Shown: positions 594 through 63,177 of the stretch, piece by piece | How the letters are laid out: every line of letters starts with the position of its first letter | How positions within the stretch are numbered: the first letter of the stretch is position 1 | Assembly (NCBI GenBank): GCA_030613025.1 | Contig: JAUWMT010000006.1 | Coordinates: forward strand, 4,512-68,511 | Direction: 5' to 3' | DNA length: 64,000 nucleotides | Source of the DNA: Candidatus Cloacimonadota bacterium | GTDB lineage: Bacteria; Cloacimonadota; Cloacimonadia; JGIOTU-2 | Position numbers and translations under genes: made by a program | The notes under the pieces: model-generated | What the model was told of the DNA's origin: nothing | The model's database searches: none | The model's input: the letters and a program-made list of their open reading frames with translations, nothing else

Positions 594-1030
594 CCTGTTT
601 GAAGATTTGTTCTATTGTTAATGCCACACCGTAGGTTCATTTGCCCCCAATGACCGCTTTTGTCTTCATTTACAATCCAACTTGTATTTATGGCTGAATA
701 TATTCAGCCCCTACAGGTTGCTTTATTCTGCGCAACGGGATAAAACCGTGTCTCTCCGCTAGCTAGCGGGTTGGTGCAGGTTCATCCTGCACGCAATAAC
801 ACACTTCAACCGATAAATCGGGGACTCCTCTTCAGTCTTCGTCTGACAAGTCGGAATACGCCGCGAAAATCAAGAGGAGATTTTCCTAATTCTCTTACGA
901 CTTGAAACCACACTGTACAACGAGCCGGATCTGCCACGGCGCAATGCAACGAAGCCGGATTTATCACTCCAGAGTGAAACATAGGAGGACCACTTTTCAT
1001 TTTTCATTTTACATTTTTCATTGCGAAGCG

Positions 1031-3385: not shown

Positions 3386-3603
3386 ATTATACCTGCCTGT
3401 TAAAAGTAAACAACGGATTTCCGTCCCCGATATCTCGAGGACAAGCTTTCACTGGAATGATAGTTGAAAGGTGATTTATTCTTAACGTGAAAATATGTAT
3501 AATAAATTGAAATCATTGATAATATACTCCAGCATTTACGTTTTGAAACCCGACTCGAATGTAAAGAATCCGAGCCGAGTTTCATTCTTTCTATTAAGTT
3601 ACA

Positions 3604-5112: not shown

Positions 5113-5146
5113 TTTTTATACCTTTTCCCTTTTATCTTTTCACCTT

Positions 5147-7381
5147 TCACCTTATTTTCACCATCTTCCTCACCACTGCATGTCCGTTATACTCTAATTT
5201 ATATAAATAGGCGCCTGGCGCGACCTGCCGGCCCTGCTCGTTTGTACCATCCCACACAATCTTTGTCTTTACCCAGAAATTATTCGTTCTTCCGTCGAAC
5301 CTGCGGACTAACTGCCCTTTGGCATTGTATATGGAAAGTGTGTAATCTTCTACTCTTTCGTAATCTGCTGTTATGAAAAGTATTTCCGTCTCATTTATAA
5401 AAGGATTGGGGGTATTCTGGAAAAGGTACAGGTTATGAATAAATGTAGTATCCGGCTGGTCAATACTTACCGTGTCCTGGCATTCATAAGCACCGATATC
5501 TATCCTTCCGTTGAATATTCTTGGATTACCCGCTAAATCCGTTGCGGGAAGATGCAGCCCAGTTGTGTCCGGTGTGCCGGCATCGATGCAGGGAGAGTAT
5601 TTTGTTAATTCATAACTGAAGGGATCTCCGCCGACAAAAAGCGGATCTTCGTCTATGTTTCCTTCTCCCCAGTAAACAGTGCCATTATTATTCGTATTTA
5701 TTGCATCTATCCCACCCTCGATATTGCAGTACTCGACAGAAGCAGAATTAGGCTCATCATAAGGAGCAAACCATATTTCTGTTGTAGGATCATTCCTGAG
5801 AATGGTATTGATAAGTGTTATGTGACTATTACCAACTAAGTTTATGGTACCCTCAGAACAATCCTTATTATCGACAATAGTTGAATTTATAACATACATT
5901 TGTTTATATCCCCAGAGTATGCTTATACCACTTGAAATGGGTCCACTATTTTCTGCAATTAATGTATTTATAAAAACAGGTGAACAATTGTTCGCAAAAA
6001 AACAAGCACCAAAATTACAAGTAGATGGTTCTACTACATTGCCAATGATCTTACATTTATTTAATAATAATGAAGTATTATTACATACTTGTAACGCAAC
6101 TCCATTAGTTTCAAATGTAGAGATTACTTCGACATTGTGGAATGATGAAGTACAATCTGAATATAGTTCTATTTGTGAAACTCCATCATCCATACAATTA
6201 TTATTTTTTAATATAATGTCATCGAAATGTGTTGAAGAATGAGACTCGATACTCACACCTCCATCATAGCAATTTTGTCCATTTTTTAGTGTTACATTTT
6301 TTACTAAAAGATCCGAAACGTTTCTTATTTCAAACAGATTAGCCGTCTGCTCTGCATCAAGAATGGTAAATTCTTTACCTGTACCGATGAAAGAGATATT
6401 ATCTTTCCCCCCAAGAGCAAAGAATTCACCGGTTACAGAGGGTGAATACGTGCCCTCATCAATATATATAGTATTCGGATGTGTGCTGTCCGATTGAATC
6501 ATGATAAGAGCATGGTAGATGTTCTGAAATGATTCATTCCAGTTCAATCCGCTATTTGCATTATTGCCATCAGGAGAGATATATACATCCTGATTAATCG
6601 TCTCAATTTTATGATTTTGATTGTCAACAGTAACCTCACCCTGATATAATCCACTGTCTGGTGCTGTTGCGTAAAATTTATTCGGTTCCTGAACTGTAAA
6701 AGTATCGACTATCACATGGAGTGTTCCTAATTGGTTATATATATCAGATCCATACGCAGCATAGTTGAGATATATATTGCACTTATCTGATTCTGAGAAA
6801 GAAGCATTCCCTTCACCTGAAAAATACATTCCACCACCAATCTGAGAAAAATTGTTAATAATAGTAACATTTGTAAATTGTAATGTATTCCATGAACTTG
6901 AATATATACATATTCCACCTCCGTAATCAGCTTCATTATTTTCTACTATTATGTGTGATAGATGAACCGAAATATTTGACAAGAAAAACCCTCCTCCAGC
7001 ATAGTAATTATGGTTACTAATAAAGTATCCGCTTCCATTTGTTATTGTAAAACCAAATATCTCTGCATCTGTTTCTTCATTATTTAATGTCACACAACTT
7101 CCATTATTATTGCCATCAATTATTGTACAGTTTATATAAACTTCATCTCCTGTAGTGTAATACTTACTTGCAACGGTAATGTTCTTCCCAGTGTAATCAA
7201 TATTCTCATAATAAGTTCCGGGATACACAAGAATAATATCTCCGTCTGCAGCATTATCGATCCCTTCCTGTATGCTCGTGTAGTCTCCAGTGCCGTTTAT
7301 GTCAACAATGATTGTTGATGACCAGATAGATGAAAGCGGGAGAAATGCTGTAATTAAGCAAAAGAGAAAAAAATGTTTCAT
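5147..7381 (-). CDS. secreted beta-helix (Pmp-like repeat) protein with T9SS C-terminal sorting domain
   Basis: 744-aa ORF with a signal peptide and beta-helix repeats. It has the same SPCIDAGTPDTTGLHLP..DLAGNPR..GRIDIGAYE module and an NTPNPF...IYNAKGQLV...GAYLYKLE...VKIR tail. It shares a 33-nt identical DNA stretch with 1031..3385 (gtgtccggtgtgccggcatcgatgcagggagag). Confidence 0.85.
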   Translation of the reverse strand: MKHFFLFCLITAFLPLSSIWSSTIIVDINGTGDYTSIQEGIDNAADGDIILVYPGTYYENIDYTGKNITVASKYYTTGDEVYINCTIIDGNNNGSCVTLNNEETDAEIFGFTITNGSGYFISNHNYYAGGGFFLSNISVHLSHIIVENNEADYGGGICIYSSSWNTLQFTNVTIINNFSQIGGGMYFSGEGNASFSESDKCNIYLNYAAYGSDIYNQLGTLHVIVDTFTVQEPNKFYATAPDSGLYQGEVTVDNQNHKIETINQDVYISPDGNNANSGLNWNESFQNIYHALIMIQSDSTHPNTIYIDEGTYSPSVTGEFFALGGKDNISFIGTGKEFTILDAEQTANLFEIRNVSDLLVKNVTLKNGQNCYDGGVSIESHSSTHFDDIILKNNNCMDDGVSQIELYSDCTSSFHNVEVISTFETNGVALQVCNNTSLLLNKCKIIGNVVEPSTCNFGACFFANNCSPVFINTLIAENSGPISSGISILWGYKQMYVINSTIVDNKDCSEGTINLVGNSHITLINTILRNDPTTEIWFAPYDEPNSASVEYCNIEGGIDAINTNNNGTVYWGEGNIDEDPLFVGGDPFSYELTKYSPCIDAGTPDTTGLHLPATDLAGNPRIFNGRIDIGAYECQDTVSIDQPDTTFIHNLYLFQNTPNPFINETEILFITADYERVEDYTLSIYNAKGQLVRRFDGRTNNFWVKTKIVWDGTNEQGRQVAPGAYLYKLEYNGHAVVRKMVKIR

Positions 7382-46596: not shown

Positions 46597-47496
46597 TTAT
46601 TTTCTGTCGCCATGTGGGTGCGCTGTTTTGTATACTTCTTTTAATTTCTGCATGGAAGTATGGGTATATATTTCTGTTGATGTCAAGCTGCTATGCCCGA
46701 GAAGTTCCTGCACAGAACGTAGATCAGCGCCGTGATTGAGCAGGTGGGTTGCAAAGGTGTGCCGAAGGGTGTGAGGACTGTAATTCTTGGATTTTTCAAT
46801 AACTTTCAGATATTTATTCACAATATATCTGAGCTCGTCAGCTGAGAGGGGATTGCCATTTTTAGATACAAAAATTTGAGGAACATCTATTGCTTTAATA
46901 AAAGATCCACGAATTTTCAGATATTTTTGCAAAGCAGCAATTGCATAACTTCCCATCGGAATGATCCTTGTTTTTGAGCGTTTACCAAGTACTTTTATCT
47001 GATCCTGTCTGAAATCCACATCCTTGATCTTGAGTCCCGCAAGCTCTCCGATACGAATTCCTGTGCTATACAGCAGCTCAAGAATGGCGATATTCCGAAT
47101 CCCAAGTGCATCTTCTTTGTCAGGAATTTGCAGAACGAAACGCATGTCGTTTTCAGTAAGAAAGGTAGCAGCATGTTTTTCAAATTTTGGGATCTTAATT
47201 TCGATGAGAGGATTATGTGTTGTAAGATCATTCTGTATCAGGTACGAAAAGAATGCTTTGACAGAGATGACCTTTCTGGCGAGGGTTCTGTTGCCGTCCT
47301 TTTGCTCGCTGAGATGCTGAAGGAAATCTCGAAACATGGATTTATTTATCTCTTCAACAATAATGATCTCATCAGGAAAAAATTTCTTAATAAACTCAAA
47401 AAATTGCTCAACATCTCCAAGATATGCACGAAGAGTGTGATTAGAATAATTTTGTGAAACGAGATATTCTTTATATTTTTGAATTAACTTTTCCAT
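46597..47496 (-). CDS. tyrosine site-specific recombinase, XerC/XerD family
   Basis: The N-terminal SAM-like domain has TLRAYLGDVEQF. The catalytic region is GIRIGEL...RIIPMG...HTLRHTFATHLLNHGADLRSVQELLGHSSLTSTEIYTH. Confidence 0.9.
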   Translation of the reverse strand: MEKLIQKYKEYLVSQNYSNHTLRAYLGDVEQFFEFIKKFFPDEIIIVEEINKSMFRDFLQHLSEQKDGNRTLARKVISVKAFFSYLIQNDLTTHNPLIEIKIPKFEKHAATFLTENDMRFVLQIPDKEDALGIRNIAILELLYSTGIRIGELAGLKIKDVDFRQDQIKVLGKRSKTRIIPMGSYAIAALQKYLKIRGSFIKAIDVPQIFVSKNGNPLSADELRYIVNKYLKVIEKSKNYSPHTLRHTFATHLLNHGADLRSVQELLGHSSLTSTEIYTHTSMQKLKEVYKTAHPHGDRK

Positions 47497-48170: not shown

Positions 48171-48328
48171 GATGTACCAAGTGTTCTAATGTTCCCAGGA
48201 TTGACAAGATATTTATGTCAGGAAGGAATTTTAACCACGAAAAAACACGAAATATCACGAAAAGTTTTGATACTTGTTATGAAATAAATCCAACTGATTA
48301 TCAATAATGAAAAGAAAATTCCTCCAAG

Positions 48329-49176
48329 TTAGACTTTATTCGCAGTGAACGCAGAGAGCGTGAATCGAGAATTGCGCAATTAAATCATCCTCGCTTCATG
48401 CTTCGCCACGAAGCAAGTCTGTGCACGATCTTCTTCTTAAATCATCATTTGTTAATCTTTTTTTGATTTAAGAACACCGAACACCGATTTTAGATTTTAG
48501 AAGTGTCATATTTTTTCATCTTCTTAGATCTCAAATCGTTAATCGATATTCGACATTCAGCATAACCCGAGTCGTTCCCTTCACGACCGACTCGTGTAGT
48601 CTTAGTAATTGGAGACTTGAGACATATCGGAGAGCATGTTTTAAGTTGTAATATGTTACCAGAATTACTTATCACGAGCTCTGCGACTTGTGACAAGGTA
48701 ATTCTGTTAGACTTTATTCGCAGTGAACGCAGAGAGCGTGAATCGAGAATTGCGTCATATTCATCATCCTCGCTTCATGCTTCGCCACGAAGCAAGTCTG
48801 TGCATGATCTCCTTCTTAAATCATCATTCGATAATCTTTTTTTGATTTAAGAACACCGAACACCGATTTCAGATTTTAGAAGTGTCATATTTTTTCATCT
48901 TCTTAGATCTCAAATCGTTAATCGATATTCGACATTCAGCATAACCCGAGTCGTTCCCTTCACGACCGACTCGTGTAGTCTTAGTAATTGGAGACTTGAG
49001 ACATGTCGGAGAGCATGTTTTAAGTTGTAATATGTTACCAGAATTACTTATCACAAGCTCTGCGACTTGTGACAAGGTAATTCTGTAAGACTTGATTCGC
49101 AGTGAACGCAGAGAGCGTGAATCGAGAATTGCGCAATTAAATCATCCTCGCTTCATGCTTCGCCACGAAGCAAGTC
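48329..49176. repeat. tandem repeat, 378/379-bp unit, about 2.2 copies
   Basis: Units start at 48329, 48707 and 49086 (ttagac/taagac...). The last ~213 nt of the two full units differ at only 2 positions. The first ~165 nt, which carry REP-like hairpins such as gcttcgccacgaagc, differ at ~10 positions plus an indel. A solo fragment lies at 49801-49852. Confidence 0.9.
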
Positions 49177-49185
49177 ATGAAGTCT

Positions 49186-49773: not shown

Positions 49774-49984
49774 TTCACCTTCATAAAAAAAAATTATTTG
49801 AGAATTGCGTACATCATCATCCTCGCTTCATACTTCGCCACGAAGCAAGTCTGATGACAAAATCATAAATCTACAAAAATTTGACATTTAGATTTTGGCA
49901 TTTCATTTGACATTAGTTATTTGGATTTAGAAATTTTAAAATAGTTGCCACACCCATTAAGGTCTTTATCTTATTAGTGTAAAT

Positions 49985-52720: not shown

Positions 52721-53737
52721 ATGAAGAAACCTCTCATTCTTGCGATAGAAACCTCCTGTGACGATACCTCCGCAGCACTAATCGATGGAAATTGTAATGT
52801 GCTCTCCAATGTGATTTCTTCTCAGGAAGAAGTGCATCTGAAGTATGGAGGAATTGTGCCGGAGCTTGCATCCCGTGAGCATATTCGTACACTGATCCCA
52901 ATCGTGGAAATGGCTCTTGAAAAAGCAGAAATGGGCTTGAAGAATATCGATGCTGTCTCAGTTTCTGCAAATCCCGGACTGATCGGTTCTTTGCTTGTCG
53001 GCGTGTCTTTTGCGAAAGGATTGGCTTTCAGTTTAAGGAAACCACTTATCGCAGTGAATCATATTTTCGGGCATGTGTTCGCTAATTTTTTGGAGAATAA
53101 AGATATTGAGTTCCCTTTTTTATCGCTCATTGTTTCCGGCGGGCATACAGAACTGGTGATCTTTTCTTCATCACTTGAATATACTATTCTTGGAAAAACC
53201 GTGGATGATGCAGCTGGTGAGGCATTTGATAAGATCGGAAAGCTGCTTGGTTTGCCCTACCCGGGTGGACCTCATATTGATTCCCTTGCTGTAGGTGGAA
53301 ACAAGCTTGCTATTGAATTCCCGCTTCCAATGCTCAAGCATAATAATTTTGATTTCAGTTTCAGCGGATTGAAAACTGCCGGCATGCTCTATCTCAAAAA
53401 AAAAGGGATACTCGATGAAGCTCAAACTCATGATTTTGCTGCGAGTTTCCAGCATGCGATCGTTGAAGTGCTCTTCCTGAAAACGATCAAAGCGCTGAAA
53501 GAACACTCATTGAAAACACTTTTACTTGCAGGTGGGGTTGCTGCGAATTCCGAGTTGAGAAGCGTGTTTGCAAACTATTGCAAAGAACACGACATCAAAC
53601 TTTATTATCCTTCAGAAAAGTACTGCACAGATAATGCAGCGATGATCGGGGCAGCTGCTCAATTCAAATATAGAAATAAAAAATTCGCATCCCTCGAACT
53701 GAATGCATCTTCTGTGAAGGGCATGAAACTGCTATGA
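52721..53737 (+). CDS. tsaD: tRNA N6-adenosine threonylcarbamoyltransferase TsaD
   Basis: ILAIETSCDDTSAALI...GGIVPELASREH...VSANPGLIGSLLVG...VNHIFGH...VSGGHTEL...GEAFDKIGKLLGLPYPGGP. Confidence 0.95.
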   Translation: MKKPLILAIETSCDDTSAALIDGNCNVLSNVISSQEEVHLKYGGIVPELASREHIRTLIPIVEMALEKAEMGLKNIDAVSVSANPGLIGSLLVGVSFAKGLAFSLRKPLIAVNHIFGHVFANFLENKDIEFPFLSLIVSGGHTELVIFSSSLEYTILGKTVDDAAGEAFDKIGKLLGLPYPGGPHIDSLAVGGNKLAIEFPLPMLKHNNFDFSFSGLKTAGMLYLKKKGILDEAQTHDFAASFQHAIVEVLFLKTIKALKEHSLKTLLLAGGVAANSELRSVFANYCKEHDIKLYYPSEKYCTDNAAMIGAAAQFKYRNKKFASLELNASSVKGMKLL

Positions 53738-54858
53738 TCTTTTTCTATATTCTGTATGGGCTGACTGCACTGTACAGTTTGTTCCTCTTATTTCTCATTG
53801 TGGGAACTTTCAGGGTCAACAGAAGTATTTCTTCAGTGAAGAAAAATCATAACATTTCAGTTATTGTTGCTGCCCGGAATGAGGATAAGCATTTATCTGC
53901 ATTACTGAACGATCTGCTGAAGCAGGAATATCCTCAAGACAAATTTGAAATCATAATTACGAATGACCGCTCGACAGATAAAACCGATTATATCCTTAAT
54001 AATTTTTCCCGAAAATATCCTCAGATAAAATATATTTCTATTCAAGACGAATTAACTGAACTGATCGGGAAGAAGCGTGCACTTACTGAAGGGATCAAGC
54101 ATGCACAAGGTGAAGTCCTGCTCTTCACAGATGCGGATTGCAGGCCCGGGAAATTCTGGCTGCGTTCCATGAATAGGGTGTTTTCACGGGGATTTGATGT
54201 TGTGGTTGGCTACTCTCCTCTCAAATGTCAGAGCAAAGGTTTTGGCAAAAGGATCATCTGCATACTGAAAAAACTTGAGCGGCTTGCAATATTTACATTA
54301 TCTGCCGGCAGCATTGGTTGGAATTGGGGAATTACCGCAACAGGCAGGAATTTTGCCTACAAAAAGAAGGTGTTCGAATCTATCAACGGATTTGAAGGAA
54401 TTGGACATATCCCGTCCGGCGACGACGATCTCTTTCTTCAAAAGATCAGCAAAAGCCATTCTTACAAAATCGGATTTGCTACTCATCCGGACAGTTATGT
54501 TCCTTCAATTGAGGAGAAATCTCATTCCCAGACATTTCAGCAGGAAAAGCGGCGCGGTTCGAAATGGCAATACTACCCGGTGCTCATAAAAAGTGTCTCT
54601 CTCCTTGCCTTCATTTTTCTTTTATTATTATTGATAACTTTCGTCCTTGCATTAGCAGGGGTCGTGACATGGAGATCCTTCCTTATTGTATTTCTCGTAA
54701 AAAGCTTACTCGACTTCCTCATTCTTCTGCGTGGTGCAACTATCTTCAGAGAATATATTTCATTGCTTGTCTTTCCATTTGTGGAAGTGCTGTATGCTCC
54801 CTATTTTATCATTTTTGGATTGCTGGGCACGTTAAGTAAATATAAATGGAAAATGTAA
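53734..54858 (+). CDS. family 2 glycosyltransferase, membrane-bound
   Basis: ISVIVAARNEDKHLSALLNDLLKQEYP..FEIIITNDRSTDKT, then FTDADC (DxD-type), then C-terminal TM helices. Confidence 0.85.
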   Translation: MIFFYILYGLTALYSLFLLFLIVGTFRVNRSISSVKKNHNISVIVAARNEDKHLSALLNDLLKQEYPQDKFEIIITNDRSTDKTDYILNNFSRKYPQIKYISIQDELTELIGKKRALTEGIKHAQGEVLLFTDADCRPGKFWLRSMNRVFSRGFDVVVGYSPLKCQSKGFGKRIICILKKLERLAIFTLSAGSIGWNWGITATGRNFAYKKKVFESINGFEGIGHIPSGDDDLFLQKISKSHSYKIGFATHPDSYVPSIEEKSHSQTFQQEKRRGSKWQYYPVLIKSVSLLAFIFLLLLLITFVLALAGVVTWRSFLIVFLVKSLLDFLILLRGATIFREYISLLVFPFVEVLYAPYFIIFGLLGTLSKYKWKM

Positions 54859-54911
54859 AATTATTCGATTGGCTGGATCACCAGTTTACCAGTTTACTAA
54901 TTCACCAATGA

Positions 54912-54988
54912 CCAGCTCTTTTTCATTGACAATGAATTAAGTAAATTATTTATAGAGCCATCGGCTGAGGATAAAAAATGGAAAATTT
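54912..54988. repeat. island junction repeat a (promoter-like: TTGACA-N17-TTTATA / N19-TATAGA)
   Basis: ccagctctttttcattgacaatgaattaagtaaattatttatagagccatcggctgaggataaaaaatggaaaattt closely matches 57115-57190. Its left part (actaattcaccaatgaccagctctttttcattgaca, from 54896) matches 61898-61933. Confidence 0.8.
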
Positions 54989-55104
54989 GATATGTATTTA
55001 AAAAAAGACAGAGGTTTAAAATAAAGATGATTTATTTTTATAACCCCACAAAAAAAACGAAAAATAAGCTACAATAAGTAACTAAACATAAATAAAGAGA
55101 ATTT

Positions 55105-55947
55105 ATGAACGATATTGGAAAATATGAAATAAATAAGGTTTATTGTGGTGATTGCGTTGAAATGATGAAATTAATACCTGAATCAACTATAGATTTAGTA
55201 GTTACTTCACCACCATACGATAAAATTCGATTTTATAAGGGAAATTTAGAGTTTGACCTTCATAAAACGGGTCAAGAAGTATTTAGAGTTTTAAAAAAAG
55301 GTGGTATAGCAGTAATGGTTATTCAAGATCAAACAAAAAATTTTGGAAAATCATTAACTTCGTTCAAAACAATAATTGATTGGTGTGACAATATTGGCTT
55401 CAAATTATTTGAAACAGTAATTTATCGAAAACATGGATCAGAAGGAGCGTGGTGGACAAAGAGATTTCGAGTTGATCATGAATATATGCCGATATTTTTA
55501 AAGGGATATAAACCAAATTATTTTAATAAAGAACCATTAAAAATTCCTTCAAAGCATGGGGGTAAAGTAATGACGGGTAGTGGGTCGAGAAAAACTAATG
55601 GAGAAACGCAACACACCGTCACAAGACAAATAAATTTTAAAAAATGTAGAGGTACAATATGGGAATATTTAATGGCTGGTGATAAAAATCCATTAAAGAG
55701 AAAACATCCAGCAGTTTTTCCAGACAAGATACCGTATGATTTTATACAGTGTTTTTGTCCTGAAGAAGGTATCGTATTAGATCCATTTGCTGGAAGTGGA
55801 TCAACTCTAGTAATGGCAAAAAAACTAAGACGTAATTTTATTGGGTTTGATGTTGTCCCAGAATATTGTGAATTAGCAAGAGAACGCTTGAAAAAAGAAA
55901 CTAATGAAGATCAAACAAACATCTTTTCAAATATAATAAAAAAGTAA
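55105..55947 (+). CDS. DNA methyltransferase, beta class (N4-cytosine or N6-adenine; SPPY suggests m4C)
   Basis: Motif IV is DLVVTSPPYD (residues 30-39), near the N-terminus. It also has HPAVFP, and motif I is LDPFAGSGST near the C-terminus. This is the circular permutation of the N-4/N-6 MTase family. Confidence 0.9.
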   Translation: MNDIGKYEINKVYCGDCVEMMKLIPESTIDLVVTSPPYDKIRFYKGNLEFDLHKTGQEVFRVLKKGGIAVMVIQDQTKNFGKSLTSFKTIIDWCDNIGFKLFETVIYRKHGSEGAWWTKRFRVDHEYMPIFLKGYKPNYFNKEPLKIPSKHGGKVMTGSGSRKTNGETQHTVTRQINFKKCRGTIWEYLMAGDKNPLKRKHPAVFPDKIPYDFIQCFCPEEGIVLDPFAGSGSTLVMAKKLRRNFIGFDVVPEYCELARERLKKETNEDQTNIFSNIIKK

Positions 55948-55957
55948 AGGCGATTGT

Positions 55958-56587
55958 ATGGCTATTCAAGATTTATTAAAAGATAAGACTGATCAAATTG
56001 ATTATGATTCTATTTGTAAAAAGTATAGTTGGATTTTGGAAGAGAATCACTGTTGCGTTTTAAGTCCTGATAGTGACGGATTTCTTTGTGGCTTATTTAT
56101 GTCAATGATCCTTAAATGGAAAATTGTGGGTTTTTATGACGGAAAAGTATCGGTGGTGAAAAAGAAGTATCTAAATAAAAATCCAATATTTTTAGATATT
56201 GAAATATTCAGAAAAGAAATCCGTAGTATGGGACACCACATGTTATTAGTTAATAAAAGACATGTACCAGAAGAATGGAAAAATTTTGATAACTGTATTC
56301 AACCAAATAATCTACGAAACTACGATGGAAGGAATAATTTTAGATTAAAATACCCCTTGGCAACAATTCATATGCTAATAAGTATTGTTACTTATAAATG
56401 CAAAGAAATTAAAATTCCTGAATCTGCAATTCCTCCATTGTTTTTTACAGATGGTGTATTTAATATTTTATTCCGTTATCCAGAAAATGTGTTAAATTGG
56501 TTAAATTATTTAAGAATCAATGAAAGCTGGAATCCTCTGAAAACCATTTTTGAAAATGATAAATATAGTGTTTTTACTTTACTTTAA
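55958..56587 (+). CDS. unknown protein, candidate restriction/effector partner of the methyltransferase (part 1)
   Basis: 209-aa ORF starting 11 nt after the MTase stop. I recognise no family. It contains acidic/His clusters (SPDSDG, FLDIEIF, MGHHML). Confidence 0.5.
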   Translation: MAIQDLLKDKTDQIDYDSICKKYSWILEENHCCVLSPDSDGFLCGLFMSMILKWKIVGFYDGKVSVVKKKYLNKNPIFLDIEIFRKEIRSMGHHMLLVNKRHVPEEWKNFDNCIQPNNLRNYDGRNNFRLKYPLATIHMLISIVTYKCKEIKIPESAIPPLFFTDGVFNILFRYPENVLNWLNYLRINESWNPLKTIFENDKYSVFTLL

Positions 56588-56988
56588 TGAAAGAAATGGA
56601 CAGTTTTTTTCGTAGAAGGGACGCTATAAGTATTAGTAAAGAGCGTGGTGATAGATTAAGGATTTCAAATAAAGATGGTACACCTACAAATATTGAAAAC
56701 ATCCCAAGTGGAAATTGTATTATTAATTCAGAAGCAAAAAAAAGAATTGTTGATTTTATGAAAATTCTATCAGATTTAACAGAATGGGAATATGAAGAGA
56801 ACGACTGGTTGTGTTGGGAAGATATGAAATTCTTCCAATTTAAAAAAGGTGATTTCAAAGGTGATAGAAAAACGATTACAATTCAAACTTTTAAAGAATT
56901 TATTGAAAAAAAACCACTATCATGGGCGATGACAAGTGGTGATAATATTGAATATACATTAGAGGAGCCGGATAAACTTCTAAAATAA
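56587..56988 (+). CDS. unknown protein, candidate restriction/effector partner (part 2)
   Basis: 133-aa ORF whose ATG overlaps the upstream stop (TAATG). This indicates translational coupling or a frameshifted single gene. No motif recognised. Confidence 0.5.
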   Translation: MKEMDSFFRRRDAISISKERGDRLRISNKDGTPTNIENIPSGNCIINSEAKKRIVDFMKILSDLTEWEYEENDWLCWEDMKFFQFKKGDFKGDRKTITIQTFKEFIEKKPLSWAMTSGDNIEYTLEEPDKLLK

Positions 56989-57114
56989 TCTTCATCAAAT
57001 GGATAGTAAATAAGAATGATAGGTTTAATTTCAGACTGAGCACACCTTTCTCCTTATCCGAATACAGCATGCTTATTTCTATACTCGACTCGAGTGAGAA
57101 CGGTTTTGGAATAG

Positions 57115-57190
57115 CCAGCTTATTTTATTGACAATGGATTAAGTAAATTATTTATAGAGCCATTGACTGAAGGATAAAAATGGAAATATT
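57115..57190. repeat. island junction repeat b
   Basis: ccagcttattttattgacaatggattaagtaaattatttatagagccattgactgaaggataaaaatggaaatatt is a direct repeat of 54912-54988, 2.2 kb away. Confidence 0.8.
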
Positions 57191-57334
57191 TATTTGCGAA
57201 ATACGCGCAATATTGCGTGAAACCTACCGAATTTGGAGGTATTCATGCAATAAATTGCAGGGATATAAACGTTAGGCGAAATGCAATAGCATTATGTTAT
57301 CAGACAATATTCGACAAATTATAGGTGTATAAAT

Positions 57335-60049
57335 ATGAAAAAACAAATCAAAATAATACTTGATCCCGAAATATCAGATTCTCAAAAGGGAGATTTCTTT
57401 GAGGATCTGGTTCGTAGTATTTTTGAGACCCAAAGGTATGATATTACACAACGGGTTAATTTTACAGGAATGGAAATTGACTTAATCGCTAAACATAAAG
57501 ATATATCGGAAACTGCTTATATAGAGTGTAAGGCAAGAGAGAGACTTAATTCTGATGATATAAGAACATTTGCTTTTAATGTAGGACATCGGGAAGCAAA
57601 TCATGGATATTTTATATCAACCACAGAATTTGAACACCAGGTAGCCGGTTTGATTGAAGAAATGAAAGGGAAAGAGAAATATGCAAATCTATATTTCTGG
57701 AAGCCAGATAAAATATTTGAGCTACTTGAAAGTGCAAAAGTAATAACTCCATTAGCACTCAGTAAAATAAAACATACCATCACTAAAACCATTCTCTCGT
57801 ATACATATTTTGGAACTTTTTATATATTGATTTTAATGAAAAATACAATCCCCTCTCAATTCTGTGTCTACAATGCTATGAAAGCCTCTCTAATTGAAGA
57901 TAATAATATAATCGAAAAACTAAAGAATGCTATATCGGAAATTAGAGATCTAAACTATCTCTCCATCCCAACAGCCGTTAAAGAAACACCAGAGGAGGAA
58001 TTTCGTGAGACCGTTGCTGAAGTACATGAGAGTGAAAATTGGTACGATTATCTTCCCGCTTCAACGAAACATTTCATTGGTAGGAAGGATTTAAAAACAA
58101 ATTTATTTGATTTCATTGATCAAGCAAGTTCAAAGAAAACGTCCCGTAGGATCTTTTATATTGATGGAAAGTCTGGTTGGGGCAAGAGTTCTTTAATCAC
58201 TGACTTAAGAGGGAGAAGTAAAAATAAGTTTTATCGTAAGCGTTATTTTGTCCTTGCGGTAGATGCCCGAAGTGTTTCGTCGAGTAACTTCGTAGCATTA
58301 GCATTCAATAAACTTATTGAAAATGCAACAGAGGCTGGTTTTTTAAAAACGACTCTTTTTTTTCATCCAAACGTGGATATCATTTCCAGCTTTGATATAT
58401 TGGGTTCGGAATCGGTGCGTCAGTTATTCAAGGGCTTAGAGAGCCAAAATAAAACTTTAATATTAATATTTGACCAATTTGAAGATGTATTCAGAAAACC
58501 GGGCCTCTTCAAGGCCTTTCATAAATTTTTGCTTGATGTCGATGAGGTTAAATCTAATCTCATTCTGGGATTTTCATGGAAATCTGAAATAAATATACCA
58601 ATCGACCATGAAGCCTATCATCTATGGCAGCAAGCAAAAAATTTTGCTTTTTGCATTTCAATGAGAGAATTTAATCCACCTGAAATAAATGGAGTTATTA
58701 AACAATTAGAAAAATCTATTAGTAAACCAATAGATTTGGATCTTAAAAGGCGTTTGATTGAAAGTTCTCAAGGATTCCCTTGGTTAATCAAAAAACTGTG
58801 TATTCATACTTATAAGCAATTGAAAGCAGGAAAGACAATTGAAAACTTAGTTGAACAAGATTTAAACTGCGAAGTTTTGTTTAAAGATGACGAGGAAGGA
58901 TTGTCTCCTGAAGAGATCAAAGCACTAAACTATATTGCAAACCGTTCTTTTGACGGTAATTTCTTTGATGCAACCGAAGTGGATGAAAAAATTGATGAAT
59001 CTGTTATAACTGCACTTATTTATAATCGTCTCGTTGTAAAATCAGGTACAAAGTATAACGTATATTGGGATATTTTTAGAGACTATTTAGTAACTGGGAA
59101 AGTCCCTCCAATCGGTGAGAGTTATATCCTTCGGCAGTATGTAAGCGTTTGCTTTTATGTATATAAGCTATTTAAAGATCAAGAGAAACTTAATTTGGAT
59201 GAAATTAAGAAACTGCACCCAAGGCATCCGGGAATACGAACACTTGATAATATTCTACGTGAATTAAGAAGTATAGGTTTAATACGGAAATCAGGTGAAA
59301 ACTTCCAGAGGAGTAGGAAGGATATACCAGCAACAGATGATGGTTTTAGAGAATATATTAAGGAAAAATTTATGCGATATACCCCTTATTTAAAATTGAA
59401 TAATTTAAAAAACAAAGAAATTGGTATTTCAGAAATAGTCTCTACTTTGAAGGACATTTTCAGAGGGATATCATTCACAGAAAAAACATGGATTACTTAT
59501 TCAAAATACCTTATTAGTTGGTTCCAATTTGCAAATTTAGATATTCAAGATAGATTGGTAGTATTAAAAAAAGGAAGGCATGTCGGAATTAGTAGAATAC
59601 AACAATTTGATAATAGAGAAACCTTTACTCCTCAAAGTCGCCCCAAGAAAGATATTGAGGTTTTTCGCAACCTTACAGATCAAGTGAAAATTAGTAACTT
59701 TAGTAAGTTATATAAGTCCTTCTATGATTTAAACTCGATTGGCTTAATTAAATATTCTAGGAAAAAAGTACGCCTGACAGAAAAGGGTAAGCTAATTTTG
59801 AAAAAAGTTGGCAAAAAGGAATTTGAAAAATTAATTGCAATTGCAACCCTAAAAACCAAAAAATTAAAGCAATCTGCAAAGTATTTTTTTGAACATCCAG
59901 AATGCACAAGAAAAGAATTTGGTAAAGCATTATCAAATTTAACATCTAATATAAATTCGGAAGCATATAAAAAACAAGTAAATCATGTACTTTACGTCTG
60001 GGCAAAGTTTATTTATGATCATTTAAAGAACTCAAATTGGATTCAGTAA
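57335..60049 (+). CDS. Mrr-like PD-(D/E)xK nuclease fused to STAND/AAA-type P-loop NTPase and C-terminal winged-helix-like repeats (NLR/Avs-like defence candidate)
   Basis: The N-terminus is GDFFEDLVRSIF...GMEIDLIA...AYIECKAR..L....IR.F (Mrr-cat pattern; D49, E64, K66). FIGRKDLKTNLFDFI then precedes the Walker A IDGKSGWGKSS (G278-S285). The Walker B is LILIFDQFED (about 375-384) and the GxP-type motif is SSQGFPWLIKKL (about 478-489). Residues ~520-904 contain several wHTH-like units (e.g. LRELRSIGLIRKSGENF, LNSIGLIKYSRKKVRLTEKGK). Confidence 0.8.
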   Translation: MKKQIKIILDPEISDSQKGDFFEDLVRSIFETQRYDITQRVNFTGMEIDLIAKHKDISETAYIECKARERLNSDDIRTFAFNVGHREANHGYFISTTEFEHQVAGLIEEMKGKEKYANLYFWKPDKIFELLESAKVITPLALSKIKHTITKTILSYTYFGTFYILILMKNTIPSQFCVYNAMKASLIEDNNIIEKLKNAISEIRDLNYLSIPTAVKETPEEEFRETVAEVHESENWYDYLPASTKHFIGRKDLKTNLFDFIDQASSKKTSRRIFYIDGKSGWGKSSLITDLRGRSKNKFYRKRYFVLAVDARSVSSSNFVALAFNKLIENATEAGFLKTTLFFHPNVDIISSFDILGSESVRQLFKGLESQNKTLILIFDQFEDVFRKPGLFKAFHKFLLDVDEVKSNLILGFSWKSEINIPIDHEAYHLWQQAKNFAFCISMREFNPPEINGVIKQLEKSISKPIDLDLKRRLIESSQGFPWLIKKLCIHTYKQLKAGKTIENLVEQDLNCEVLFKDDEEGLSPEEIKALNYIANRSFDGNFFDATEVDEKIDESVITALIYNRLVVKSGTKYNVYWDIFRDYLVTGKVPPIGESYILRQYVSVCFYVYKLFKDQEKLNLDEIKKLHPRHPGIRTLDNILRELRSIGLIRKSGENFQRSRKDIPATDDGFREYIKEKFMRYTPYLKLNNLKNKEIGISEIVSTLKDIFRGISFTEKTWITYSKYLISWFQFANLDIQDRLVVLKKGRHVGISRIQQFDNRETFTPQSRPKKDIEVFRNLTDQVKISNFSKLYKSFYDLNSIGLIKYSRKKVRLTEKGKLILKKVGKKEFEKLIAIATLKTKKLKQSAKYFFEHPECTRKEFGKALSNLTSNINSEAYKKQVNHVLYVWAKFIYDHLKNSNWIQ

Positions 60050-60455
60050 GTAGTAGGAAACAGGTGGTAGATACGAGTGCACTATGCCTAACAGCGGATA
60101 AAAGGCTCAATTTGTTCGCCCAAATTGCCTTCTGCAACTTCATTTATCCACAAAACATTATATGCCTTTGAATATCAACTAACTTATTTACACATTTATC
60201 TCACCCAAGTCGGGTTTTGTACCTTAAAATTTAACATCAGTCATTATTTTGCAGAAAAATTTCATCCATTTCTTGAAGTCTATAATTAATAAATACACAT
60301 TAACTAAAAACGATAGTTGTTTTTCGCGATTTTTCATTTTTCTCTGTGTCCTCCGCCTGCCAAGGCGTAGTGGAACGTAGACTGGTGGTGAATTATCTTT
60401 TATAACGGTTTGTCCGGGTTTGGTTTTGTAATGAATAGCGGAGAATTATCCAATA

Positions 60456-60576
60456 CCCAACTTCTTTTTATTGACAACCATCCCCTCATCAGGGAAACCA
60501 TCTATCAATCATTATGAAAGTACGAGTTTTAGCAAGCGGAAGCAAAGGAAACTGTATTCTGGTTTCCGGTCAGGGA
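60456..60576. repeat. island junction repeat c (promoter + first 21 codons of the MBL-fold gene)
   Basis: cccaacttctttttattgacaacc...ATGaaagtacgagttttagcaagcggaagcaaaggaaactgtattctggtttccggtcaggga is parallel to 61913-62031. The 63 nt from the ATG differ at 5 positions. Confidence 0.85.
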
Positions 60577-60789
60577 GACAAATCAAAAACAGAGATTTCA
60601 ATTGATACGCTTCTTAAAAAACATTATCCAAAAGCTAAATTCATTGGCTTTGTTGATGGGATCGGCTGGTATGTTAGGAAAAATGATTTGAAGAGAATGG
60701 TAACAGCTTATGAAGATGTTTTCACTTTTCATCAGGATGAATTGCAACGATTCAGAGAATTAGTAAAGGAAGTTTTAACAAATGATTGA
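60514..60789 (+). CDS. chimeric ORF: MBL-fold N-terminus (MKVRVLASGSKGNCILVS) fused to the C-terminal remnant of another gene (probably the restriction partner of the downstream MTase)
   Basis: The first ~19 codons duplicate the start of 61970..62212. The rest (…KFIGFVDGIGWYVRKNDLKRMV…) is unrelated and overlaps the MTase start by 8 nt (ATGATTGA), as in an R-M operon. Confidence 0.4.
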   Translation: MKVRVLASGSKGNCILVSGQGDKSKTEISIDTLLKKHYPKAKFIGFVDGIGWYVRKNDLKRMVTAYEDVFTFHQDELQRFRELVKEVLTND

Positions 60790-61757
60790 AAAATATATTA
60801 ACCAGATAATTCAGGGAGATTGTTTAGATTTATTCAAAAAAATCCCCGATAACTCAATCGATATGACTTTCGCTGATCCTCCTTTTAATCTAAAAAAGAA
60901 ATATAACAGTTATAAAGATTCATTAGAGTTTAAAGAATATCTTGATTGGTGCAAAAAATGGATTTCCGAAATGGTGCGAGTAACAAAACCGACCGGTTCG
61001 ATTCTTGTTCATAATATACCCAAATGGCTTACTTATTTTGCAGAAATTTTTAAATAAAAAAGCAGATTTCAAACATTAGATTTCCTGGGATGCTCCGACT
61101 GCTCCAATGGGAAAAACCTTACAACCTTCACATTATGGTATTTTATTTTATGCAAAAAATCAAAAGGAACTAAAATATTACGAAATAAGGTATCCTCATA
61201 AAAGAGATAGAAAAACAGGTTATTTACTAAAAGATTATGGTGGGGAAAAAGCTCTTTTACATCCTTTCGGTCCATTAGTTTCCGATGTATGGACGGATAT
61301 TCACAGGATCAAACATAATAAAAGACGTGATCCTCATCCTTGTCAGCTTCCCATCCATTTGCTCGAAAGACTAATATTAATGACTACCAATGAGGGTGAT
61401 ATTGTCCTTGATCCTTTTATAGGAACAGGAACTACTGCAATTGCCGCTAAAAAATTGAGTAGAAAATATATCGGATTTGAAATAGACAAGCAGTATGTTA
61501 AAATTGCTAATAATAAACTTATTAGAATTCAGAACAACTCAAGGATAGGCGATAGTTGGGTAAGTTTTTATTTAGAGGAACCTCGAACTATAAGAAATTC
61601 AGACTGGGAACTAATCAAAGATTATTTCTCAATACCAATAGACTTAAGGGATATTGATAAAGAGAAAATTACATTGAAAAAACATAGAAAATTAGTCAAA
61701 ACCGAGCAAATCAAAGTTTTGGAAATTTTCAATAAAGTAGCAGCCAACAGTAGATAG
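60782..61757 (+). pseudogene. beta-class DNA methyltransferase disrupted by a frameshift and an in-frame TAG
   Basis: ORF 60782..61057 carries IIQGDCLDLFKKIPDNSIDMTFADPPFN (motif IV DPPF). ORF 61107..61757 carries HPCQLP and LDPFIGTGTTAIAAKKL (motif I). The second frame extends upstream as NKKADFKH-TAG(61077-61079)-ISWDAPTAPMGK. The reading frame shifts by +1 in the A/T run around 61041-61060. Confidence 0.75.
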
Positions 61758-61912
61758 ATAATGTTGTATGATTTCAGTGAAGTGTCATGAATCAATCCAT
61801 AACGTATTTTCCCAGAGGCATTAAGTTTATATTAATTCATTATTAAAATTCATACATCAGTTCCGAGTTAAAATTCTGCATACCAATTCACATATATACT
61901 AATTCACCATTG

Positions 61913-62031
61913 ACAACCTCTTTTTATTGACATTCATCCCATTTGTCATGAATTCATCTCTCAATTAATATGAAAGTACGAGTTTTAGCAAGCGGAAGTA
62001 AAGGAAACTGCATACTGGTTTCCAGCCAGGG
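61913..62031. repeat. island junction repeat d (native promoter and start of the MBL-fold gene)
   Basis: See repeat c. The upstream part shares actaattcaccattgacaacctctttttattgaca with junction a. Confidence 0.85.
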
Positions 62032-62212
62032 ATCTGCCCTTTTGGTGGATGCGGGATTGAGCTTGAAGCGTCTAAGAGAGATACTTTTTGACATTGATTT
62101 CCCAATTAAGGATATTCAAGCCATCGTTATTTCTCATTTAGGTGGAATCTTCCGAATCCGCCGCAGCACGCATGATCGTTATACCCCATGCAAAACAGTA
62201 AAAATATTTTAA
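61970..62212 (+). pseudogene. truncated MBL-fold metallo-hydrolase gene
   Basis: MKVRVLASGSKGNCILVSSQGSALLVDAGLS...IQAIVISH follows the MBL-fold N-terminus up to where the HxHxDH motif should begin. It then diverges (LGGIFRIRRSTHDR...) and stops after 80 codons. Confidence 0.65.
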
Positions 62213-62215
62213 AAA

Positions 62216-63022
62216 ATGGATAAAGCTATGAAAGTAAATAGGTGTTCCCGCCGGAAAATTCTTAATCCTTGTGGCTTAGAAATGCACAATTATCAAATAG
62301 ATACTTACATCGGCTGTGAACATTTGTGTCGTTACTGTTATGGATTAAACGATGCTGAGACTGACTGGCACAAAGAAATTATGATTCATGAAGACATTCT
62401 TGAACAATTGGCTCAGGAGATGAACTCTCTGGAACCGCAGTCTATTTACATAGGAATGAATAGTGATCCTTATCAACCTTCTGAGAGAAATTTCAAGCAG
62501 ACTGGAAAAGTATTGGAATTATTAGCAGAAAGAGGTTTCTCAGTTTGCATCTTGACCAAATCGGAACTGGTAACAAGAGACATCGATCTTCTTAGGAAAA
62601 TGCCAGATTCCTCCGTAGGTTTTTCTATCGCTTTCCATGACGAACAAACTCGTCAACTGTTCGAAAAACAAGCACCTTCGAACAAGGAAAGGTTAGAAGC
62701 TCTTGGAAAATTGAAAAGTTCCGGCATCAAAACATACGCTTTAATCTGCCCGATAATGCCCTTTATCACAGATATCGACTCAGTAATAGAACTGGTATCT
62801 CCATATTCAGATACAATTTGGGTATATAAACTACACATGGAGTCAGAGAATGATAAAAACTGGCTTAATGTAAAATCCATTTTAGACCAGCACTTCCCTG
62901 AATTAACTGAGCAATATCAGAAAATCGCCTTCTCGAAAAATCATTCATACTGGAAAGGAATTCGACATAAACTAGAAGAAATTAAAAGTAAGAAATGCTT
63001 AAATTTAAAAATAGAATTATAA
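62216..63022 (+). CDS. radical SAM protein, SplB/DNA-photolyase-like (COG1533-type)
   Basis: IDTYIGCEHLCRYCYG is a CxxxCxxC cluster in the N.Y.GC.H.C.YCY context typical of the SplB-like family. The size is 268 aa. Confidence 0.8.
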   Translation: MDKAMKVNRCSRRKILNPCGLEMHNYQIDTYIGCEHLCRYCYGLNDAETDWHKEIMIHEDILEQLAQEMNSLEPQSIYIGMNSDPYQPSERNFKQTGKVLELLAERGFSVCILTKSELVTRDIDLLRKMPDSSVGFSIAFHDEQTRQLFEKQAPSNKERLEALGKLKSSGIKTYALICPIMPFITDIDSVIELVSPYSDTIWVYKLHMESENDKNWLNVKSILDQHFPELTEQYQKIAFSKNHSYWKGIRHKLEEIKSKKCLNLKIEL

Positions 63023-63177
63023 AAAATCAGCAATATACTGCACGGTGTATAACAATGTATGCACAAACTCCGCAAGCTCCGTTCGTGGCACACACCAACC
63101 GTTATACGACAAACATCGCTCTAAAAAGGCAAATCATCAATGGTTGGTAAAATATTTATTTAACGGAGTATTTAACA

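Follow-up and report, generated by a model that had tools for sequence, protein, structure and literature searches.

A predicted NLR-like defence gene with a winged-helix tail, carried as an integron-type cassette in Cloacimonadota and other anaerobes

The stretch of DNA analysed here, referred to as the window, comprises 64,000 nucleotides of contig JAUWMT010000006.1 (positions 4,512 to 68,511, forward strand) from the Candidatus Cloacimonadota bacterium assembly GCA_030613025.1. In keeping with this origin, its TsaD shares 86-92% identity with that of Cloacimonadota metagenome-assembled genomes. The window contains a gene for a 904-residue protein that joins an Mrr-type nuclease, a nucleoside triphosphatase (NTPase) of the STAND class and a basic winged-helix tail. 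This gene and its relatives in the close clade, the window copy included, are the cargo of an integron-type cassette that has moved between phyla. The cassette and its recombination site, attC, form the most informative feature of the locus and were missed in a preliminary description made from the sequence. We consider it very likely that the gene acts in defence, and the explanation that we favour as the probable one is a single-protein, NLR-like (STAND, nSTAND1 clade) anti-phage sensor. The mobile unit is made up of the following parts:

57272 to 57334, plus strand: 5' end of the cassette and leader, with the core heptamer GTTAGGC (GTTRRRY type) and an AGGTG Shine-Dalgarno sequence 8 nt before the ATG.
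57335 to 60049, plus strand: complete coding frame of 904 amino acids with an ATG start, encoding an Mrr nuclease, an nSTAND1 NTPase and a winged-helix tail.
60086 to 60163, plus strand: attC-type site, with R'' GCCTAAC, L'' AGCGGATAAAAGG, a loop with GCCCAAAT, L' CTTCATTTATCCAC and a degenerate R' (ATTATAT).

The attC sites of integrons have the anatomy R''-L''...L'-R' with conserved AAC and GTT, and they are recombined as a folded bottom strand (PMC12614218). Both marks of a cassette boundary, the G|TT of a core site and an R'' complementary to the first bases of the unit, are present in the window. The left border of homology falls exactly at GTTAGGC, GTTAGAT, GTTAAGC or ATTAGGC in about 20 independent contigs from different phyla, and the sequence to the left of this core heptamer is unrelated between contigs. 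On the right, the GCCTAAC at 60087-60093, about 38 nt past the stop codon, is the exact reverse complement of the first heptamer, GTTAGGC. Across copies, GCCTAAC leads into an arm, then a variable hairpin with a core resembling CACCCAAAT, then the complementary arm and, after a spacer of 4-5 nt, GTTAxxx.

The predicted structure of the site is supported by covariation in an alignment of 13 sites, 8 of them downstream of the STAND gene and 5 belonging to preceding cassettes. Pairing in this alignment reaches 90.4%, compared with 74.0% in column shuffles (none of 500 reach the observed value), and the covariation score is 0.417 compared with 0.123. When the partner arm is slid, pairing falls to 31-45%, a control that is somewhat favoured because the structure was derived from the same 13 sequences; the compensatory changes are unaffected by this, and in the L-stem 8 of the 12 pairs change on both sides. 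Canonical copies fold at z = -4.4 to -4.8. A covariance model, R1, was built from the same alignment and scores the site at 60086-60163 at 68.5 bits, this site being a member of the training set and the only good one in the window. Outside the training set, R1 matches further sites, for example at L106 (79 bits) and L107 (63 bits; loci other than the window are given here by L numbers). Arrays that include the STAND gene carry three sites in L102 and two each in L089, L112, L091, L093 and L090, and all R1 sites of the close-clade loci lie on the strand of the STAND gene, directly after stop codons. As a specificity control, R1 gave no match at E <=0.01 in 1.5 Mb around distant homologues. From these comparisons, the cassette state appears to be confined to the close clade, at about 75% protein identity or more.

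The attC family extends well past the STAND gene. The raw count from a genome scan with a 17-mer of the L'' arm is meaningless by itself, since chance alone would give about 70 matches. Rescoring with R1 left 92 matches in 80 loci, with full-length sites of 50-96 bits in about 60 of these loci. Arrays of 3-5 co-oriented sites occur in L192, L211, L196 and L237. The sites are found on contigs of 190-400 kb and in one complete genome (CP054675.1), across many bacterial phyla and in the archaea Methanoperedens, Methanoliparum, Altarchaeum and Nanoarchaeia. This looks like a cross-phylum, cross-domain cassette pool of anoxic habitats. Sequence conservation of the attC family is strong among loci L177-L256 (for example L249, L221 and L209), with scores of up to 96 bits.

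Tyrosine recombinases with a near-identical box II motif, LLGHKSSK[T/I]TEIYTH, adjoin three of the R1 arrays, hosted by metagenome-assembled genomes of Edwardsbacteria, Atribacteria and Caldiserica. They lie at 2243-3349 on the minus strand of L237, 6326-6940 on the minus strand of L192 and 3190-3453 on the plus strand of L194, the last two being fragments. The L237 recombinase (369 aa) is upstream of three attC sites. Of the NCBIfam models, the integron integrase TIGR02249 matches it best, with 236 bits that stay below the cutoff of 265. A match to NF040815 at 231 bits passes the cutoff of 220, and the scores with XerD and XerC are 190 and 188 bits. This recombinase and the cassettes are transcribed in the same direction, which we take to be the 'inverted' integron arrangement.

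Certain features of the window copy speak against an integron origin. Its attC has a degenerate R' (ATTATAT) and a weak fold (z = -1.24), and no integron integrase is present in the window or in the close-clade loci examined. A tyrosine recombinase at 46597-47496 in the window was considered for this role and rejected as XerC/D-like (308 bits, compared with 128 for IntI). A homologue in Vibrio rotiferianus was likewise considered as a superintegron cassette and rejected, since its surroundings lack an attC array. The solitary state of the window cassette, its degenerate R' and its weak fold fit an old insertion at a secondary genomic site, and cassettes do integrate at genomic attG sites (PMC12614218). 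The window copy is best described as a lone cassette in a variable, low-GC hotspot, the make-up of which is given below.

Anti-phage cassettes have been reported from integrons (Darracq et al. 2024, 10.1101/2024.07.02.601686; 10.1101/2024.07.02.601719), and the present family resembles them in having a promoter-proximal open reading frame (ORF) with an attC and in forming co-oriented arrays with other defence cassettes. The published examples come from Vibrio and Enterobacteria integrons and are mostly small streamlined systems, whereas here a 2.85-kb STAND gene is paired with an attC family of anaerobic candidate phyla and archaea. The window copy differs further in standing alone, without an integrase nearby.

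The distribution of the gene is rare and patchy. A pattern-based scan found it in at least 76 of about 185,000 species-representative genomes, a count that is a lower bound, from at least 15 phyla including Archaea and bacteria of the Candidate Phyla Radiation. The gene and its short flanks share 81-87% DNA identity with loci of Aminicenantes, Chloroflexi, Vulcanimicrobiota and others. None of the sequenced phages carries it. The copy in Carboxylicivirga is cargo of a CTnDOT-like integrative and conjugative element (ICE), the L005 copy adjoins an integrase, and a copy on a Chryseobacterium plasmid is found among a PD-(D/E)XK nuclease, a WYL protein, a JAB/zincin pair and an HNH gene. In Paenibacillus the gene is near DUF4145 and JetD fragments. 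Neighbouring cassettes encode type ISP restriction-modification (R-M) enzymes, GmrSD-HNH, an AAA_15/AAA_21 (OLD/AbiEii-like) ATPase, N6/N4 methyltransferases, a type III Res subunit and an aminoglycoside adenylyltransferase. Locus L089 reads XRE, STAND gene, attC, KAP NTPase, attC, and type I R-M with GmrSD. In its stretch 4110-6379, the gene for the KAP-family NTPase (721 aa) has its own R1-type attC at 6289-6379 (46 bits) and is an integron cassette too. In L102, a streptomycin/aminoglycoside adenylyltransferase (Adenyl_transf, E 1.7e-78) and a lipocalin-like gene lie between the first two attC sites (245-3614), which places a resistance-type gene among the attC sites of an environmental family.

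Among the 150 ORFs that lie within two genes of 40 distant-clade loci, PADLOC models match AbiEi/Eii, ThsB, type IIG R-M, PsyrA, PDC candidates and a cytosine methyltransferase with an NgoPII-type endonuclease, and Pfam adds 5 integrases and 3 IS91-type transposases. This picture is weakened by two findings, as 150 control ORFs at least 6 kb away in the same loci also match defence models, and L002 and L086/L011 have only housekeeping neighbours. The redundancy of PADLOC models inflates the counts in this near/far comparison, and enrichment is stated here qualitatively. The gene behaves like a defence gene, with horizontal transfer, carriage by plasmids, an ICE and integrons, and arrays shared with R-M, GmrSD, KAP and OLD-like genes.

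The same mobility could be read in another way, in which the gene is a selfish or maintenance module of the mobile element (nuclease addiction, exclusion or inter-element competition) that stabilises arrays or ICEs. In favour of this explanation, the gene is always found on mobile or variable DNA, whether integron cassettes, an ICE or plasmids, and in the window it occupies a hotspot whose R-M genes are decaying. We consider it improbable nonetheless, as no antitoxin or immunity gene is conserved alongside, the effector-STAND-sensor layout is the signature of ligand-triggered immunity, and the neighbours are diverse defence genes and not one type of element. In every locus examined the STAND gene is a lone gene without a conserved partner.

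As regards the protein, the preliminary description is confirmed, with the amendments given below. The 904-residue frame at 57335-60049 is real and its coordinates are exact, and all of the motifs quoted for it lie at the residues given. In an alignment of 74 full-length homologues reaching down to 40% identity, each motif is either invariant or kept in at least 90% of the sequences. In this alignment the nuclease motif residues E47, D49, E64 and C65 are invariant and K66 is conserved in more than 90%. In the NTPase, G249 and R250 of the FIGR motif upstream of the P-loop are conserved, and the Walker A motif (G278-K-S-G-W-G-K-S-S286) and Walker B motif (F379-D-Q-F-E-D384) are invariant. The GxP motif conserves Q479, G480, P482 and W483, with G480 above 90% and P482 and W483 invariant. 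Pfam assigns Mrr_cat to residues 17-109 (E 6.8e-10, 39.5 bits, cutoff 21); with this profile above its cutoff and the catalytic triad D49/E64/K66 intact, the N-terminal domain is placed among Mrr-type PD-(D/E)xK nucleases. The nSTAND1 profile (PF20703) matches residues 241-403 (E 1.5e-6, 28.5 bits, cutoff 27.1), and AAA_16, AAA_assoc_C (791-892) and HTH_45 match below their cutoffs. A homologue search returned 610 proteins, nearly all of about 900 aa with Mrr_cat and nSTAND1. PF20703 is precomputed in nearly all of the 120 homologues listed, and nSTAND1 was found in all 7 of the further members tested, at 30.5-37.7 bits. The family is annotated by NCBI as 'restriction endonuclease', with WP_126996185.1, WP_439185429.1, MCD4783820.1 and MEA2006419.1 among its accessions, and is also carried in UniRef.

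An AlphaFold2 model of the full-length protein, built from the 74-sequence alignment, has a mean predicted local distance difference test score (pLDDT) of 85.6 and a predicted template modelling score of 0.71. Its domains correspond to the following segments:

57335 to 57733, plus strand: residues 1-133, Mrr_cat PD-(D/E)xK nuclease from Pfam, the predicted effector; pLDDT about 90.
57734 to 57946, plus strand: residues 134-204, small beta domain of three strands and a helix.
57947 to 58069, plus strand: residues 205-245, acidic flexible linker; net charge -7, pLDDT below 50 at 214-223.
58070 to 58669, plus strand: residues 246-445, nucleotide-binding domain (NBD) with FIGR, Walker A at 278-286 and Walker B LILIFDQFED at 375-384.
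58670 to 58900, plus strand: residues 446-522, helical domain HD1 with the GxP motif G480-F-P482-W.
58901 to 59110, plus strand: residues 523-592, canonical STAND winged-helix domain (WHD), 'NRLVVKSGTKYNVYWDIFRDYL'.
59111 to 60046, plus strand: residues 593-904, candidate sensor tail, modelled separately with AlphaFold2; basic and family-exclusive.

The single-gene fusion of an Mrr nuclease, a STAND NTPase and a winged-helix tail without TPR repeats, as first described, is borne out by both profiles and model. Two details of that description need amending. The linker of about 130 residues after the nuclease shrinks to residues 205-245, since residues 134-204 form a confidently folded beta-sheet-plus-helix domain (strands 148-157, 160-169 and 172-180, helix 190-199; pLDDT 82-94) with a weak Pfam match to DUF7226. 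Of the three or four winged-helix units proposed for the C-terminal region, the model contains three and no fourth. The first of these (523-592) is made up of three helices followed by a hairpin and belongs to the STAND module, which leaves residues 593-904 as the sensor candidate. The WHD is the most conserved segment of the protein (conservation 0.73), and its invariant residues in the alignment are G571, Y574, N575, Y577, W578, D579 and D583. The tail is divided into wH2 (593-662), a helical bundle (663-742), a disordered loop (743-768), wH3 (769-824) and a C-terminal bundle (825-904).

Two results stand against the assignment of the NTPase to the STAND class. Foldseek searches with the full model return 2qen, 2fna (SSO1545), ORC/Cdc6, RuvB and RFC at E 1e-7 to 1e-5 and CED-4 and NLRP3 at about 1e-5, so that ORC/Cdc6, RuvB and archaeal ATPases rank slightly above CED-4 and NLRP3 in a comparison that does not discriminate between classes. 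In addition, the nSTAND1 score of the window protein barely exceeds its cutoff. The fold matches to ORC/Cdc6 and RuvB, together with a weak NCBIfam match to RuvB (20 bits, cutoff 282), are what favours a nuclease fused to a housekeeping AAA+ protein that resembles ORC/Cdc6 or RuvB and serves replication or repair. Cdc6/Orc1, SSO1545, RuvB, Apaf-1, CED-4 and NLRC4 form one family of structural homologues that share the NB-ARC1-ARC2 arrangement (PMC4599002), and similarity to the ORC/Cdc6 fold is expected for any STAND protein and is uninformative here.

Sequence features decide more clearly. The Walker B motif, D-Q-F-E-D, is without the AAA+ catalytic Glu at +1, so the D-E pair of a housekeeping AAA+ protein is missing, and instead has acidic residues at +3 and +4. 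In this it is similar to the Walker B motif of NACHT proteins, DGxDE. In the model and the alignment the domains follow the STAND order of NBD, HD1 with GxP, and WHD. The only curated profile that exceeds its cutoff for the NTPase is nSTAND1, and no Cdc6/ORC family appears among the Pfam or NCBIfam matches of the window protein or among the Pfam matches of the tested relatives. The patchy presence in 76 of the roughly 185,000 species-representative genomes and the 81-87% identity at the DNA level across phyla make up a distribution shaped by horizontal transfer, which is incompatible with a housekeeping gene. With Walker B, GxP, profiles and patchy distribution in agreement, the STAND assignment of the preliminary description is upheld over ORC/Cdc6, the housekeeping explanation is effectively excluded, and from its sequence the NTPase is best assigned to the nSTAND1 clade.

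As the ATPase dominated the Foldseek search with the full model, residues 521-904 of the C-terminal region were modelled separately with AlphaFold2 (pLDDT 86.7). For this model Foldseek gave no fold match in the Protein Data Bank (PDB) below E 0.03. The weak matches are to SelB WH2-WH4 with SECIS RNA, Stn1, UFL1/DDRGK1, MAGE-NSE1 and MarR/Rrf2 regulators, and are consistently tandem winged-helix arrays or winged-helix regulators. A whole-family profile search found no sequence relatives in the PDB. Neither profile nor fold searches match TPR or WD40 in the tail, in line with what had been proposed for the C-terminal region at first. The tail is also the least conserved region, with a mean identity to the window protein of 42%, compared with 61-66% for the Mrr domain, NBD and WHD. 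Searching 1.84 billion representative proteins with the tail by phmmer yielded only 81 clusters, all of which match at about 590-900 of proteins of 890-1,140 aa or are fragments. Judged by these searches, the tail is exclusive to this family. Distant relatives of 725-795 aa have nSTAND1 and an AAA_assoc_C-type tail without Mrr, which makes the NTPase-plus-tail module the stable core and the effector an exchangeable part.

Residues 593-904 of the window protein have a net charge of +30 and an isoelectric point (pI) of 9.9, and across the family the tail averages +12.5 +/- 6.9 with a pI of 9.2. In a Bacteroidota subclade (L057 and L071, 1,147-1,197 aa) the full architecture is followed by C-terminal HA repeats (PF03457, E about 1e-40), of which Pfam confirms three in L057 and four in L071. 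From length alone, HA repeats are presumed in L058, L060, L062 and L081 of the L057 group (about 1,133-1,147 aa) and in L072 (about 1,197 aa), which goes with L071. Three further proteins, L026, L029 and L045 (1,023-1,036 aa), have a C-terminal extension without a Pfam match. The HA domain is described by Pfam as a putative nucleic-acid binder. The modelled winged-helix build, the conserved positive charge and the accretion of HA repeats would be consistent with recognition of nucleic acid, and we suggest tentatively that the ligand of the tail may be DNA or RNA, the default alternative being a phage protein.

Several points count against nucleic acid as the ligand. Winged helices also serve protein-protein contacts, and charge and fold are no proof of nucleic-acid binding. 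Typical Avs sensors are longer and less conserved than this tail, and the Avs triggers characterised to date are all proteins (PMC13581612). Direct contact of a STAND/NLR immune protein with DNA has a precedent in the plant NLR Rx1 (Fenyk et al. 2015, PMC4599002). Rx1 is understood to contact DNA through its NB-ARC region after activation, in contrast to the dedicated winged-helix tail proposed here, and its homology to the window protein is limited to the STAND core. It is with some doubt that we raise the most specific form of the idea, in which the tandem winged-helix array would directly sense a structure, end or modification of invader nucleic acid and would have been spread across phyla by an integron whose attC family reaches archaea.

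Among known defence proteins, the nearest in layout are the Avs proteins. The effector of Avs4 is Mrr-like. Like Avs3 and Avs4 (Gao et al. 2020/2022; census in Lee et al. 2026, PMC13581612), the window protein is one polypeptide with an N-terminal nuclease, a central STAND NBD-HD1-WHD and a C-terminal sensor. Both are horizontally mobile, the present family shares a location in defence islands at some of its loci, and ligand-induced oligomerisation that activates the nuclease would be expected in both. The family differs in having an NTPase of the nSTAND1 clade, no sequence relative in the PDB and no AVAST/Avs match in PADLOC. When scanned against PADLOC-DB v2 (2023), the window protein gave nothing significant (best WH_III-A, E 0.0038, and PDC-S02, E 0.029) and no match to AVAST or NLR models; this also tells against an NLR-like sensor, as the protein is not one of Avs1-5 or bNACHT as modelled in 2023. 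The large TPR-like or WD40 C-terminal sensor that is the hallmark of Avs and bNACHT is absent, and the predicted sensor of winged helices and bundles has about 310 residues, compared with at least 400 residues of TPR-like repeats in Avs.

The nSTAND1 clade was defined in 2021 in predicted counter-invader systems (Kaur, Burroughs, Iyer, Aravind; PMC8195603). PF20703 exceeds its cutoff in the window protein and in all tested relatives, which links the family to these conflict systems. The nSTAND1 proteins described there differ in having death-like/EAD adaptors, TIR, caspase or trypsin effectors and FGE/C-lectin sensors, some of the sensors being diversified by diversity-generating retroelements (PMC8195603). 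A census by Lee et al. 2026 (PMC13581612) lists 589 STAND clades, of which 198 are defence-associated. It used Mrr-containing seeds, included nSTAND clades and clustered only sensors of at least 400 aa, and all the triggers that it reports are phage proteins (PMC13581612). The present family is probably listed in that census. No description of the Mrr-nSTAND1-winged-helix architecture was found in the accessible literature. The suggestion that the protein is an undescribed variant is right insofar as it is uncharacterised and missed by PADLOC v2, and is to be qualified insofar as nSTAND1 was named in 2021, the family is present in NCBI and UniRef, and the 2026 census probably includes it.

By analogy with Avs3, Avs4 and Avs7 and with eukaryotic NLRs, a mechanism can be outlined that we regard as reasonably probable in its stated, Avs-like form. 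The resting protein would be a nucleotide-bound, autoinhibited monomer. Binding of an infection-derived ligand to the C-terminal tail would lead to ATP-dependent oligomerisation through NBD-WHD contacts, which would bring the N-terminal Mrr domains together as an active multimer. This multimer would then degrade DNA without sequence selectivity, and the infection would be aborted.

The main rival to this mechanism is an NTP-regulated, type IV-like restriction enzyme. Its tail would directly read some feature of foreign DNA, be it a modification, a structure or an end, its STAND module would serve as a licensing switch, and cleavage of the invader DNA by the Mrr domain would give immunity without cell death. 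The Mrr_cat core with its D...E-x-K triad is that of type IV enzymes and is combined with winged helices in both. Further points in favour of this rival are the basic tail of winged helices, the HA repeats of one subclade, the location of the gene near R-M and GmrSD genes and the NCBI name 'restriction endonuclease'. The architecture is unlike that of Mrr, which has an N-terminal winged helix and a C-terminal nuclease without an NTPase; the window protein has the opposite order, with a STAND switch of 300 residues between nuclease and winged helices. STAND modules are switches and not translocases. No methyltransferase partner is conserved with what is a lone gene throughout, no sign of modification dependence can be read from the protein sequence, and nothing in the sequence data separates self from non-self. 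On balance we view type IV-like restriction as unlikely and retain the NLR-like anti-phage sensor as the favoured explanation.

What is known and what is new can then be separated. Single-gene STAND defence with a nuclease effector is a known kind of system, its NTPase clade has been named and the family is publicly annotated. New relative to the accessible literature are the compact winged-helix/helical-bundle sensor, which has no solved analogue and is exclusive to the family, and the packaging of a 2.85-kb NLR-like gene as a cross-phylum integron cassette whose attC family is also present in archaea.

Around the cassette, the window holds further features that bear on its history:

55105 to 56988, plus strand: upstream neighbours, an N6/N4 DNA methyltransferase (55105-55947) and two ORFs.
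57199 to 57271, plus strand: imperfect hairpin of about 60 nt that abuts the cassette start and holds a 12-bp palindrome.
60514 to 61757, plus strand: downstream neighbours, a decayed R-M remnant, with a 91-aa ORF in which a duplicated metallo-beta-lactamase (MBL) start is fused to a DpnII-like fragment.

The gene had been thought to have its own long leader. The 346-nt intergenic region is in fact composite, and only 57272-57334 travels with the gene. The remainder consists of unique sequence (56989-57122), an 84% copy (57123-57196) of 54921-54994 upstream of the first R-M gene, and the hairpin at 57199-57271. As DNA, this hairpin folds at z = -3.75, with none of 200 shuffles as stable. Among the Cloacimonadota copies, L113, L122 and L088 retain it, with pairing preserved where their stems have changed. 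It is absent from the copies of other phyla; in L010, L092, L093 and L097 the canonical attC of the preceding cassette is found in its place. The hairpin has no match to model R1 and is probably a remnant recombination site of a preceding cassette. The palindrome cgcaatattgcg, to which attention had been drawn, is present at 57206-57217 and belongs to the junction with the neighbouring cassette, not to the gene. By itself it is at chance level: the window has 22 perfect 12-bp palindromes, where a first-order Markov model predicts 23.6 +/- 5.2. Its reading as an operator or leader element was rejected on account of this frequency and the absence of the palindrome from copies in other phyla.

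The gene was also said to lie between two R-M cassettes, which holds for the methyltransferase upstream (Pfam N6_N4_Mtase, E 5.7e-38) and fails in that the two other upstream ORFs have no family and the downstream R-M system is decayed. These two ORFs (55958-56587, 209 aa, and 56587-56988, 133 aa) share one base, and neither is matched by a Pfam or NCBIfam family; they are possibly the cognate restriction endonuclease, perhaps two-subunit or frameshifted. Downstream, an N6/N4 methyltransferase is split between 60782-61057 and 61107-61757 (profile positions 1-60 and 93-220) and is probably a pseudogene of the decayed system. About 20 codons from the start of a gene with the metallo-beta-lactamase fold (MKVRVLASGSKGNCILVS) are duplicated at 60494-60576 and 61950-62032. 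These copies are 1,456 bp apart with 88% DNA identity, one being fused to the DpnII-like fragment (60514-60789) and the other heading a truncated 80-aa ORF (61970-62212). The MBL gene seems to have received an R-M unit by insertion or to have recombined with one.

GC content around the STAND gene is 31-33%, compared with about 38% elsewhere in the window. Mosaic direct repeats at 54880-54994, 57123-57196, 60458-60576 and 61882-62032 precede each gene block of this low-GC island. They are 27-83 nt long and 80-89% identical, share the core CTCTTTTTATTGACAA with a -35-like TTGACA, and are not R1 attC sites. These repeats point to repeated recombination at one hotspot between a GT2 gene (53734-54858) and a radical-SAM gene (62216-63022), the latter with 'radical SAM mobile pair protein B' as its best NCBIfam model (150 bits, below the cutoff of 410). 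L113, L122 and L088 share the unit 57199-60160 and differ upstream, where an IS110-like remnant, TamB or unknown ORFs are found, and L122/L007 and L088 have the same radical-SAM gene downstream at 92% identity. A shared unit in differing contexts marks the region as a variable hotspot. A scan of the island for sigma-70 promoters and terminators gave fewer sites than shuffled sequence and is uninformative.

At 63047-63107 on the plus strand, a marginal R1 match (16 bits, E 0.035) directly follows the radical-SAM stop codon; it could be a decayed attC or a terminator-like hairpin. Further to the left, the ORF-poor region at 48.2-50.0 kb (48328-49178, 49814-49853) includes about 2.3 tandem copies, 98% identical, of a unit of about 379 bp. 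The repeat units begin GTTAGAC or GTAAGAC, and a 40-nt hairpin-containing element (CTCGCTTCATGCTTCGCCACGAAGCAAGTC) occurs four times in the region. Short pieces of about 62 nt also have matches in L113, L122 and L088, where they lie upstream of the STAND gene. Over the whole window Rfam finds only a tRNA-Leu, and it finds nothing in this region.

The triggers known for Avs and bacterial NLR proteins are phage proteins, detected by large repeat sensors. A STAND protein with a compact, basic winged-helix tail would test whether the prokaryotic STAND switch also couples to nucleic-acid sensing. The locus further shows that a full-size, 2.85-kb NLR-like gene can travel as an integron cassette, passing at 81-87% DNA identity between Cloacimonadota, Aminicenantes, Chloroflexi and further uncultivated anaerobes. 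This extends the idea of integrons as defence biobanks well beyond Vibrio and Enterobacteria, and the R1 covariance model can be used to mine neighbouring cassettes for new defence genes.

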